Shown here in pieces: positions 35,786-38,038 of a DNA stretch of 64,000 nt. The position numbers and the translations under genes were made by a program. How positions within the stretch are numbered: the first letter of the stretch is position 1; the number at the start of each line of letters is the position of its first letter. Source of the stretch: Escherichia phage cardinal; the sequence record PQ567651.1, one strand, 5' to 3'. Below the pieces are notes generated by a model. That model was given only the letters and a program-made list of their open reading frames with translations, was not told where the DNA came from and searched no databases.

Positions 35786-36148
35786 TTGATGTGCGCTACT
35801 AATCAACATGATATTTGTTACCAACCTCTTACTTGGATTGGTGAGGATCACTATGCTCAACGTGTTATAGTCTGCGCTGCGAATAAGTATATTCTCAATA
35901 ATGGCGAAGAGTTAATTATTCCTTGTGTTAGGCATGCAAATCCTGTACTATCTGCACAACTTAATGTTTTAAAAGATGCAGGATTGATTGATAAACTGTT
36001 TTGCTTACCTGATAATCAAGGGTTTATTGATCAGTATTATAACTGGTGGAGTCGCAAAGATGCTTATATCATTGCAGATAACGCCAAACAAATTAACTAC
36101 GAAAGAAATGGTCACAACAGTGAACTATTCAGCGAGGGATTATACTAA
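35786..36148 (+). CDS. hypothetical protein
   Basis: 120 aa. Confidence 0.4.
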   Translation: MMCATNQHDICYQPLTWIGEDHYAQRVIVCAANKYILNNGEELIIPCVRHANPVLSAQLNVLKDAGLIDKLFCLPDNQGFIDQYYNWWSRKDAYIIADNAKQINYERNGHNSELFSEGLY

Positions 36149-36699
36149 TGTTTATTACAAGTGATTTGCATTTTATGCACAAACGTATCCGAGAGTTTGC
36201 TCCTGAATATCGCCCGTGGGAAGATATGGAGCATATGACAGAAGCACTGATCGAAGCATGGAATAAATGTGCCACAACACCAGGAGTAAAGATGTACCAT
36301 CTTGGGGACTTCTGTTTCGGGACTGAAGAAGATACCCGTAAGATTGCTTCCCGTCTCCAAGGGGATATTACTTACTGTGTTGGGAACCATGATTATAGTA
36401 AACACAGAAAAGTGCTTGCAGAGTATGGAGAAGTTGTGTATTATGACGAAGTGAAATATCAGAAGCTGTTCTTCGTCTTAAGCCATTACCCTATGGCTGC
36501 CTGGAATAAACAAGGGCATGGATCAATCATGCTACACGGACACTCTCACGGATCATTCCCTGATCATTTGTATGGGAAAATGTTGGATGTTGGTTGGGAT
36601 GCACACGGGAAAATCTTGCATTTTGACGAAATCATCTCTATTATGGATAAGCGTGATATTGTTGTTGTAGACCATCATAAGATAATCAAAGGAGATTAA
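36148..36699 (+). CDS. calcineurin-like metallophosphoesterase (candidate RNA 2',3'-phosphate healing enzyme)
   Basis: 183 aa with SDLHF, GDFCFG, GNHD and HGHSHG, the canonical metallophosphoesterase motifs. Confidence 0.7.
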   Translation: MFITSDLHFMHKRIREFAPEYRPWEDMEHMTEALIEAWNKCATTPGVKMYHLGDFCFGTEEDTRKIASRLQGDITYCVGNHDYSKHRKVLAEYGEVVYYDEVKYQKLFFVLSHYPMAAWNKQGHGSIMLHGHSHGSFPDHLYGKMLDVGWDAHGKILHFDEIISIMDKRDIVVVDHHKIIKGD

Positions 36700-36700
36700 G

Positions 36701-37633
36701 GTGGCTAAGTTCAATTGTGATGACCTGATTGCAAAAGGTTTAGTGCATAAAAAAGAAGTTAAATCTGGAGAGTATGCTGGTCTTGCTGTGCTTAAATACA
36801 AAAACAATGTATTCTGGGATAATTTGTGGAACGTTGACAAACGACTTTTAGATTGTCGTGGGTTGGTTGTTGACTCAGAAGATAATGTTGTTATTTGGCC
36901 TTTTACTAAAATCTTTAATCGTTTTGAAAATGGTACAGATCTTCCAGCAGACGAAATTGTAGATGCTGTCCGTAAAGTAAACGGTTTTATGGCATCTGTA
37001 GGTGTGTACAAAGGGAAACTTGTTGTATCAACAACAGGGAGCCTAGAATCAGATTTCGCAATTATGGCAAAGAACCGTATTGTTTCCGAGTGTGACGACA
37101 TAGAGTATTTCATTAAGTGGACAGAGAGTGCAAAAGCAACTTTTCTTTTTGAAATCTGTGATCCTTCTGATCCACATATTGTCGAAGAAGAACCAGGCGC
37201 ATACTTAATTGGAGCAAGAATTCAAAATCTTGATGGAACAAGTTTCATGTTACCTGAAGGTGTTCTTGATGGGATTGCATCTATTACAAAGTTTAAACGT
37301 CCTGAAGTTTATCCGATGATTAAATTTTCAGATGTTGTTGAAATGTCTAAACATTGTAAACACGAAGGGTTTGTTGTTCGTGAAACAAACTATCCGTTTA
37401 ACTTACTCTTAAAGATTAAGTCACCATACTATCTTGCTAAGAAGTTCCTTATGCGTGGTGGCAATAAGAAGTGGGATATGATTTGGGACAACCCAAACAA
37501 TGCTAAACAAATTGTTGACGAAGAATATTATACTTTGTTAGAATGGCTTCGAAATAACTTTACGAAGGTTCAATGGGCTGCTCTAGATCCACAAGAGCGA
37601 CGTAAAGAAATAGAAAACTTCTTTGGAGGCTAA
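36701..37633 (+). CDS. ATP-dependent RNA ligase (Rnl-like nucleotidyltransferase)
   Basis: 310 aa; ligase motif I KVNG (RKVNGFM), motif III FLFEIC, motif IV EGFVVR, motif V LLLKIKSPYY. Confidence 0.55.
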   Translation: MAKFNCDDLIAKGLVHKKEVKSGEYAGLAVLKYKNNVFWDNLWNVDKRLLDCRGLVVDSEDNVVIWPFTKIFNRFENGTDLPADEIVDAVRKVNGFMASVGVYKGKLVVSTTGSLESDFAIMAKNRIVSECDDIEYFIKWTESAKATFLFEICDPSDPHIVEEEPGAYLIGARIQNLDGTSFMLPEGVLDGIASITKFKRPEVYPMIKFSDVVEMSKHCKHEGFVVRETNYPFNLLLKIKSPYYLAKKFLMRGGNKKWDMIWDNPNNAKQIVDEEYYTLLEWLRNNFTKVQWAALDPQERRKEIENFFGG

Positions 37634-38038
37634 ATGAAACAACTTATCATTTTACGTGGTGTTTCAGGCGCAGGTAAATCTACAGTAGCAGAAATTATTT
37701 CTGAAGGTTATTGGCCTATCTGTGAGGCAGATCAATATCATTACACAGAAAACGGTGTTTACGATTGGAAGCCAGAAAATGTAGGTAAAGCACACTCATG
37801 GTGTCAGAGTATTGTTCGTGATGCTATGGCATCTAATATTAAAAAGATTATTGTCTCTAACACTTCAACCACAGAGAAAGAACTTAAACCTTATTTTACT
37901 ATTGCTGAAGAGTTTGGTTATCAAGTTATCTCTTTAGTTGTTGAAAATAGGCACGGTAACGACTCAATTCATGAGGTTCCACAACATATTCGTGATCAGC
38001 AAGAGAAACGTCTTCGCAGTTCACTTAAGCTACAATAA
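37634..38038 (+). CDS. polynucleotide 5'-kinase (T4 Pnk kinase-domain-like P-loop protein)
   Basis: 134 aa; MKQLIILRGVSGAGKSTVAEII and KIIVSNTSTTEKELKPYFTIAEEFGYQVISLVVE recall the T4 Pnk kinase domain (MKKIILTIGCPGSGKST...GVIISDTNLNPERR...EYGWKVEHKVFD) as I remember it. Confidence 0.6.
   Translation: MKQLIILRGVSGAGKSTVAEIISEGYWPICEADQYHYTENGVYDWKPENVGKAHSWCQSIVRDAMASNIKKIIVSNTSTTEKELKPYFTIAEEFGYQVISLVVENRHGNDSIHEVPQHIRDQQEKRLRSSLKLQ

Follow-up and report, generated by a model that had tools for sequence, protein, structure and literature searches.

Defence systems that cleave tRNA are now recognised as common, and include PrrC, RloC, PARIS, retron-associated PtuAB, P2 OLD and Cas13. To our knowledge, the only phage RNA-repair pathway that has been tested experimentally is that of T4, where Pnkp and the RNA ligase Rnl1 repair tRNA cut by PrrC. 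The T4 system joins a 5'-kinase, a 3'-end phosphoesterase and an Rnl1-family ligase in a lytic coliphage (PMC3400036), and we find the same logic in a 64,000-nucleotide stretch of DNA from Escherichia phage cardinal (PQ567651.1; hereafter "the window"). Here, three consecutive plus-strand genes encode a calcineurin-like metallophosphoesterase (below, the phosphoesterase), a predicted Rnl1-family RNA ligase and a stand-alone P-loop kinase resembling polynucleotide 5'-kinases (Table 1). Based on intact catalytic residues, fold and profile matches, domain fusions and linkage across unrelated phages, we estimate a probability of about 0.7 that this module heals and seals broken RNA. A preliminary description of the window had read the trio as a complete set for this task; that reading is retained in outline, but it was overstated in detail and missed an upstream gene for a cREC protein, a likely further component.

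Described RNA-repair systems and the phage locus

The kinase shares with T4 Pnk its fold, P-loop, general-base Asp and the Val-Pro pair of the nucleoside pocket, and the nucleotidyltransferase domain of the ligase is homologous to that of T4 Rnl1 with all motif residues conserved. The two systems differ in how 3' ends would be healed. T4 Pnkp has a C-terminal HAD (DxDxT) phosphatase domain, whereas the phage kinase stops at 134 residues without one, and nothing in the 64-kb window matches T4 Pnkp residues 150-301, which hold the HAD phosphatase. The step carried out by the HAD domain in T4 is here assigned to the binuclear metallophosphoesterase and/or cREC. The two systems also differ in layout, as the T4 genes lie about 1.4 kb apart and the phage ligase and kinase genes adjoin.

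The closest published description is that of the sirtuin-centred neighbourhood described by Iyer, Burroughs, Anantharaman and Aravind in 2022, with Escherichia phage V5 and Proteus phage Mydo as prototypes, and predicted by them to function in RNA repair (PMC9503650, section 3.7.3). Its parts list is the one found here: a T4-like tRNA ligase, cREC, a nucleotide kinase, a MazG pyrophosphatase and a calcineurin-like phosphoesterase. In the window all five lie on one strand between 35.3 and 40.8 kb; in rV5, the orthologues of the phosphoesterase, kinase, ligase, cREC and MazG-like proteins (30-49% identity) are clustered as ORF80-85, and a tRNA array is adjacent in both phages. In rV5 the phosphoesterase and kinase genes are divergent from ligase-cREC-Sir2, whereas here all are co-directional. 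The sirtuin that anchors the published neighbourhood was not found, and a NARP1-like gene pair sits alongside instead: a tblastn search with the rV5 Sir2-like protein against the whole 64-kb window, from a genome of about 146 kb, gave a best E-value of 0.86. By its gene content, the locus is a sirtuin-less, fully co-directional member of the rV5-type neighbourhood. The arrangement is not novel, contrary to what the preliminary description had implied. Relatives already carry the annotation (the trio of BASEL phage Bas62, JohannJBalmer, is labelled 'putative phosphoesterase', 'RNA ligase' and 'polynucleotide kinase'), and published predictions agree with the RNA-repair reading (PMC9503650, PMC7824862, PMC12846349).

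Bacterial Pnkp/Hen1 systems, exemplified by Clostridium thermocellum Pnkp, perform the same three chemistries and use a metallophosphoesterase instead of a HAD enzyme at the 3' end (PMC3675462, PMC2190708). The C. thermocellum Pnk domain is the best fold match of the phage kinase. C. thermocellum Pnkp is a single polypeptide with the order kinase-metallophosphoesterase-ligase, whereas the phage has three polypeptides in another order. Furthermore, its phosphatase is lambda-phosphatase-like, in contrast to the phage phosphoesterase, which falls in the clade of Aquifex aeolicus aq_1665, and the phage ligase is of the Rnl1 type. No Hen1-like methyltransferase was found among the scanned open reading frames (ORFs) of the 33.6-41.1 kb region, where three small ORFs were left unscanned.

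A final comparison is with Pakpunavirus PAK_P2, a phage of another lineage and another host genus. Here a homologous Rnl1-type ligase gene (about 36% identity) is immediately followed by a gene for a homologous 138-residue kinase, a gene for a phosphoesterase of the same family is located about 1 kb upstream, and Prs-like and Nampt-like genes adjoin, so that ligase-kinase-Prs-Nampt are contiguous. The stretch of PAK_P2 that was examined, in which not every ORF was scanned, yielded no cREC gene. A 2025 paper on Pakpunavirus Adele read the homologous kinase and ligase as tRNA repair and noted the missing 3'-phosphatase domain (PMC12846349).

The kinase, ligase, phosphoesterase and cREC proteins

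The preliminary description was accurate on the gene structure of the trio: the three consecutive ORFs lie at the coordinates it gave, and their junctions are as tight as it had claimed. The TAA of the upstream ORF and the ATG of the phosphoesterase gene share a base (TAATG); the stop codon of the latter gene (36697-36699) is followed by a 1-nucleotide spacer and the ligase GTG, which has AAGGAG 7 nucleotides before it; and the ligase stop codon (37631-37633) stands immediately before the ATG of the kinase gene, which has GGAGG 5 nucleotides upstream. These junctions and ribosome-binding motifs make translational coupling plausible. When compared with a Phapecoctavirus homologue (86-95% nucleotide identity), the ratio of nonsynonymous to synonymous substitution rates is 0.084 for the phosphoesterase, 0.102 for the ligase and 0.153 for the kinase. 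Given this strong purifying selection, we conclude that the three ORFs are real, constrained genes. The trio is kept in 131 phage records. Family searches also bear out the assignments proposed earlier, namely a calcineurin-type phosphoesterase, a ligase with nucleotidyltransferase motifs I, III, IV and V, and a kinase separated from a phosphatase of a fold other than that of T4. None of the three proteins had a useful match in NCBIfam.

The kinase was said in the preliminary description to resemble the T4 Pnk kinase domain closely. Polynucleotide kinases are indeed its best profile and fold matches, but the relationship is remote: identity to the T4 Pnk kinase domain is 26%, and a single-sequence phmmer search of the PDB gave marginal E-values (0.16-0.5), so a family profile was needed. 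With the profile, the best PDB matches, at E 6e-6 to 8e-4, are Mucorales Trl1 kinase domains, Capnocytophaga Pnkp1, C. thermocellum Pnk, T4 Pnk and the tRNA kinase PSTK; PHROG matches are phrog_2071 and phrog_505 ('polynucleotide kinase', E 5.5e-9). For an AlphaFold2 model of the kinase (predicted local distance difference test, pLDDT, 86), the best Foldseek matches are 4jt2, 4gp6 and 1ly1 with template modelling (TM) scores of 0.73-0.77, with C. thermocellum Pnk and T4 Pnk at the top (TM about 0.75). In the active site, the P-loop GxxGxGK(S/T) reads G9-VSGAG-K15-S16, the invariant D33 aligns with T4 Asp35, the general base that contacts the 5'-OH and is essential for Pnk (PMC2831316), and V115-P116 aligns with T4 Val131-Pro132, which line the 5'-nucleoside pocket. 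The invariant R106 aligns with T4 R122 and not with R126, the lid arginine in contact with the NTP beta-phosphate, in a region where the loop is 7 residues shorter and pLDDT is about 69. Profile matches, fold matches and the active-site alignment place the protein among the polynucleotide 5'-kinases, with the corresponding activity as a prediction.

Domain fusions provide a functional handle on the kinase family, which comprises 475 representative clusters at E up to 1e-30. In a scan of 1.84 billion representative proteins, in which close kinase homologues were those with E below 1e-37, we find four kinase-Rnl1 fusions that cover both domain orders, two fusions of an HD phosphohydrolase with the kinase, and one kinase-kinase-CNPase protein, CNPase being a 2H cyclic phosphodiesterase. 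For instance, in Campylobacter concisus (NZ_PPAW01000047.1, 2413-4651) an ORF for a 513-residue kinase-Rnl1 fusion is immediately followed by a gene for an aq_1665-clade phosphoesterase; this may be a prophage or a cellular version of the module. The fusions are the strongest functional evidence for the predicted RNA heal-and-seal role.

The ligase matches PF09511 (RNA_lig_T4_1) at 54 bits against a cut-off of 28.3. A single-sequence search of the PDB returned only spurious cadherin matches, and a family profile was again needed: built from 15 homologues, it finds T4 Rnl1 as its sole PDB match (E 3.5e-10), and hhalign aligns ligase residues 47-266 with T4 Rnl1 residues 48-265 at 96.6% probability. 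Motifs I, III, IV and V are invariant in the 15 homologues (K92-V-N-G95, E151, E222-G223 and K238-I-K240), and their T4 Rnl1 counterparts are K99, E159, E227-G228 and K240-K242. R53, K70 and F72 are also invariant and align with T4 R54, K75 and F77. The protein is 98.7% identical to phi92 gp096, and it has matches in 689 phage records.

A role outside repair can be envisaged for such a ligase. It might serve mainly in tail-fibre attachment, as T4 gp63 does, and databases propagate the gp63 label 'RNA ligase and tail fiber protein attachment catalyst'; alternatively it might process the phage's own RNAs, for example the transcripts of the tRNA array near which the cluster lies. The gene sits among early or metabolic-type genes and not structural ones, its homologues are linked to end-healing enzymes in phages with unrelated tails, and some are fused to the kinase. 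We therefore regard a mainly non-repair ligase as having only a very slight chance of being correct, and keep to RNA repair.

For the phosphoesterase, five metallophosphoesterase motifs (DxH, GD, GNH[D/E], H and GHxH) are invariant in 22 homologues and correspond to D6-x-H8, G53-D54, G79-N80-H81, H113 and G131-H132-x-H134. The match to Pfam Metallophos_2 is sub-threshold (21 bits, under the 27-bit cut-off), and the rV5 and PAK_P2 orthologues pass. The AlphaFold2 model (pLDDT 93.7) has a metallophosphoesterase fold. Its closest solved relative is the structural-genomics protein aq_1665 (1xm7), which is the sole PDB match of the family profile (E 1.3e-20) and the best fold match (TM 0.71). Unlike the phage phosphoesterase, aq_1665 comes from a cellular organism; it has neither an assigned function nor a setting of RNA-repair genes. 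Membership in the lambda-phosphatase/Pnkp clade is ruled out: the profile finds just 1xm7, lambda phosphatase ranks 32nd among fold matches (E 0.04, TM 0.43), and the top 50 do not include the phosphatase of C. thermocellum Pnkp. From its genomic context, we propose that the protein may act on RNA 3' ends as a 2'/3'-phosphate or cyclic-phosphate esterase.

A second candidate for 3'-end healing is a protein encoded in the same gene string, 518 nucleotides upstream of the phosphoesterase gene. It matches cREC_REC (cREC, 'cyclic-phosphate processing receiver domain') and is 49% identical to rV5 ORF83, which also matches cREC_REC; all GenBank relatives inspected label it 'hypothetical protein'. 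Its start codon was taken from the annotation of relatives and has the ribosome-binding site GGAAGGGGG. The clearing of 2',3'-cyclic ends on behalf of ATP-dependent RNA ligases has been predicted for this family (PMC7824862), and we consider cREC a candidate for opening the 2',3'-cyclic phosphate as well as a likely fourth, 3'-end-healing component of the module. Because of this second candidate, the cyclic-phosphodiesterase step cannot be assigned securely to the metallophosphoesterase. The two ORFs between cREC and the phosphoesterase, of 49 and 120 residues, occur among the kinase-anchored loci described below only in one near-identical locus, so we consider them lineage-specific.

Linkage across phages and bacteria

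We next examined 80 diverse IMG/VR loci anchored on the kinase, counting partners within 5 kb. The complete trio is found in 21 loci, kinase plus phosphoesterase in 25 and kinase plus ligase in 8, in five gene orders; the gene directly abutting the kinase encodes the phosphoesterase in 16 loci and the ligase in 14. The commonest extra neighbour of the kinase is an RNA ligase of the PF09414 + PHA02142-OB type (15/80 loci, 11 of them with the phosphoesterase and 3 with an Rnl1-type ligase), followed by cREC proteins in at least 10 loci. The occurrence of a PF09414-type in place of an Rnl1-type ligase looks like non-orthologous displacement of the sealing enzyme. A second RNA ligase, of the PF09414 type, was looked for in the 64-kb window and none was found. 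When the phosphoesterase is used as the anchor, the kinase and/or the ligase is present in 36 of 80 viral loci, and in the other 44 the PF09414 RNA ligase is the only recurrent neighbour.

The RNA-repair reading is built on what is shown here: the genes and the families to which they belong, catalytic residues that are intact, purifying selection, linkage conserved across phages, and fusions between domains. Several other observations weigh against it. Neither partner is near the kinase in 26 of the 80 kinase-anchored loci, and both kinase and ligase are absent within 4-5 kb in 44/80 viral and 36/40 bacterial loci of the phosphoesterase clade, the bacterial members being mostly solitary. The aq_1665 clade is without a known substrate and is unrelated to the lambda-phosphatase/Pnkp clade, for which RNA-end healing, by 2',3'-cyclic phosphodiesterase-monoesterase activity, has been demonstrated. 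An ATP-dependent DNA ligase gene shares the gene string. The C-terminal helical domain of T4 Rnl1 (about residues 255-374) is missing from the ligase, as the alignment stops at T4 residue 265 and the remainder of the phage protein, up to residue 310, is a separate tail, about 45-65 residues long and conserved within its own clade only. In T4 this domain confers tRNA specificity; a tRNA substrate is therefore not implied by the ligase sequence. In the kinase, two residues essential in T4 Pnk are replaced: Arg38, which binds the acceptor 3'-phosphate, by the nearly invariant His36, and Asp85 by the invariant Asn76. Mammalian PNKP also lacks an Arg38 counterpart (PMC2831316), and so the first of these replacements does not exclude polynucleotide kinase activity. 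Lastly, in a literature search no study came up in which any of these proteins had been tested biochemically or genetically.

The DNA ligase gene, 0.7 kb downstream of the trio, raises the question of whether the substrate is DNA. Under this explanation, the kinase would act on 5'-OH DNA and the phosphoesterase on 3'-phosphates, the DNA ligase would seal nicks in phage DNA, for example after host nuclease attack, and the RNA ligase would be incidental. DNA ligase genes are near the kinase in 8/80 loci and also in rV5 and PAK_P2, and both T4 Pnkp and mammalian PNKP act on DNA too (PMC2831316). However, RNA ligases are the commoner partners of the kinase in the same 80 loci, with 29 of the Rnl1 type and 12 further ones of the PF09414 type against 8 DNA ligases. 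Among the fusions examined, the kinase is joined to Rnl1-type ligases and to CNPase and never to a DNA ligase, and both cREC and CNPase imply 2',3'-cyclic phosphates, which are formed by RNA only. DNA-end repair is thus very improbable as the main function.

A different explanation concerns the phosphoesterase. Together with cREC and MazG, possibly, it could hydrolyse small nucleotides, either immune signals or metabolites of nicotinamide adenine dinucleotide (NAD+) and ADP-ribose that feed a NARP1-like pathway; the kinase and ligase alone would then act on RNA, with 3' healing by cREC or a host enzyme. This would suit a clade that has no known substrate and often lacks kinase and ligase neighbours, and it is in keeping with the Prs-like (Adps-like) genes near the kinase in 12/80 loci and the contiguous PAK_P2 genes. 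In addition, calcineurin-domain proteins can cleave NAD+, and a counter-nucleotide function has been proposed for phosphodiesterases of phages, calcineurin-like ones included (PMC7824862). On the other hand, in 16 unrelated loci the phosphoesterase and kinase genes directly abut or overlap, the phosphoesterase tracks the kinase through five gene orders, and no neighbour recurs beside it other than the kinase and RNA ligases from two families. The phosphatase shown experimentally to be associated with NARP1 is a Macro-domain protein and belongs to another family; we accordingly rejected an identification of the NARP1-extending 'phage phosphatase' with the phosphoesterase. We judge a small-nucleotide role unlikely and favour RNA 3' ends as the substrate. 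As a separate observation, the recurrence of Prs-like genes and the PAK_P2 gene order point to a recurrent association of RNA-repair and NAD+ genes.

Genomic setting, proposed mechanism and implications

Over region 35700-38400, identity is 99.7% to Escherichia phage vB_EcoM_ZYD and 97-98% to many Justusliebigvirus genomes, and on this basis the source is a phi92-like E. coli myophage of the genus Justusliebigvirus. Four records labelled 'Campylobacter phage' with Campylobacter jejuni as host (MG065639, MG065645, MG065656 and MG065689) are about 97% identical to this coliphage region; their host labels may be doubtful, or the preparations contaminated. The adjacency reported for the three-gene cassette stands, but the cassette is not self-contained. 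The trio is embedded in a co-directional plus-strand gene string from about 33.6 to 40.8 kb, whose packing is equally tight upstream and downstream and which also carries the cREC gene. Terminator-like hairpins bracket the string (33476-33489 and 40822-40847), and the second is probably the end of the transcription unit that contains the repair genes. A promoter scan gave 30 matches against 27.9 ± 5.7 in shuffled sequence, and we make no promoter claim. The DNA ligase start was adopted from the annotation of relatives (the longest ORF begins with GTG at 38732), and the MazG-like protein is 30% identical to rV5 ORF85. The small ORFs around the trio are lineage-specific and have no Pfam match, save weak sub-threshold coiled-coil matches for the ORF at 38048-38368; they were not counted as functional parts.

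Table 1. Features of the window, with the evidence for each.
Feature	Coordinates	Strand	Evidence and remarks
tRNA array, 16 genes plus one tRNA-like gene	26928-29796	-	ARAGORN (16); Rfam (tRNA-like gene)
Nampt-like gene and Prs-like gene, divergent from the repair string	30543-32276 and 32348-33241	-	Prs-like: Pfam, PHROG; annotation of relatives
cREC protein, 113 aa, GTG start	35289-35630	+	PF20274 cREC_REC, 53.9 bits (cut-off 27)
ORF, 49 aa	35640-35789	+	no Pfam match
ORF, 120 aa	35786-36148	+	phrog_839; no Pfam match; overlaps phosphoesterase start
Calcineurin-like binuclear metallophosphoesterase, 183 aa, ATG start	36148-36699	+	phrog_547, E 4.8e-55
Predicted Rnl1-family ATP-dependent RNA ligase, 310 aa, GTG start	36701-37633	+	PF09511; phrog_562, E 1.3e-68
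Stand-alone polynucleotide-5'-kinase-like P-loop kinase, 134 aa, ATG start, no phosphatase domain	37634-38038	+	AAA_33, 37.5 bits
ATP-dependent DNA ligase (context only)	38780-39895	+	PF01068, 43.8 bits; phrog_114, E 2e-75
MazG-like nucleotide pyrophosphohydrolase, final gene of string	40093-40815	+	PRA-PH, 31 bits; phrog_671
GC-rich hairpin AAGCCCC-CGAA-GGGGCTT, just after MazG-like gene	40822-40847		terminator score on both strands

The large tRNA array of the preliminary description is present, and it includes Thr(UGU), Tyr(GUA) and Lys(UUU) at 28383-28457, 28629-28715 and 28721-28795 (minus strand). Exactly these isoacceptors are reported defence targets, Lys-UUU of PARIS AriB, Tyr-GUA of PtuAB and Thr-UGU of P2 OLD; PrrC also targets tRNA-Lys(UUU). 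The count of functional tRNAs is uncertain, between 14 and 17, because three ARAGORN calls miss the Rfam gathering score (Met-CAT 27244-27319, Ser-TGA 29189-29278 and Met-CAT 29721-29796, all on the minus strand). The Rfam-only tRNA at 29345-29423 (minus strand, 38.6 bits), unreported by ARAGORN, is annotated 'tRNA-OTHER' in a relative. Four of its nucleotides align to the 15-position D-arm segment of the model, it has an insertion of about 20 nucleotides in the variable region, and its anticodon loop CUUCUAA contains the anticodon UCU (Arg). Between the array and the repair string, the Nampt-like/Prs-like pair is likely to be, from its similarity, a NARP1 (Namat + Adps) counter-defence operon for NAD+ reconstitution. 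NARP1 was demonstrated experimentally in phage Bas63 (genes 79-80), which we take to be of the same genus as this phage. The position of the cluster beside the tRNA array and the NARP1-like operon supports, and does not prove, a counter-defence role.

Based on these data, we propose the following mechanism; what we infer in it is the activity of each enzyme, how cREC and the phosphoesterase divide the work, and that tRNA is the substrate. Metal-ion-independent ribonucleases of the host or of competitors would leave 2',3'-cyclic phosphate ends together with 5'-OH ends; candidates are two anticodon nucleases, PrrC and RloC, along with tRNases of the colicin type and HEPN RNases. Toprim tRNases, with P2 OLD as an example, leave 5'-phosphate/3'-OH ends that need no healing, and the double cut made by OLD is not repairable; the presence of healing enzymes therefore points to nucleases that leave cyclic phosphates. 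The 3' end would be healed by cREC and/or the metallophosphoesterase, with one opening the cyclic phosphate and one removing the resulting 2'- or 3'-phosphate. The stand-alone kinase would phosphorylate the 5'-OH from a nucleoside triphosphate, using the P-loop residues K15 and S16 and D33 as the likely general base. The Rnl1-type ligase would then be adenylylated on K92, transfer AMP (adenosine monophosphate) onto the 5'-phosphate and join this end to the 3'-OH. We give roughly even odds that tRNA cut by anticodon nucleases is the main substrate.

More tentatively, and with the odds somewhat against it, we suggest that the kinase, the aq_1665-clade phosphoesterase and cREC could make up a biochemically distinct end-healing machine of a 'split' kind, for which RNA ligases are interchangeable, a short Rnl1 serving in this phage and PF09414/OB enzymes elsewhere. 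If so, conversion of cyclic or 2'/3'-phosphate ends into ligatable ones would be the first demonstrated activity for the 1xm7 family and for cREC. As the ligase is without the tRNA-specificity domain of T4, a wider repair of RNA cuts than that of T4 would be possible, including those made by HEPN, Cas13 and toxin RNases, and the split machine may be functionally tied to the neighbouring NAD+-reconstitution genes. The residual interest of the locus lies in this healing machinery, which is widespread yet biochemically uncharacterised. The module occurs widely, including in the therapeutically relevant phi92-like, rV5-like and Pakpunavirus groups, and its activity, if demonstrated, would account for part of the broad host range of those phages and give a function to two uncharacterised enzyme families.

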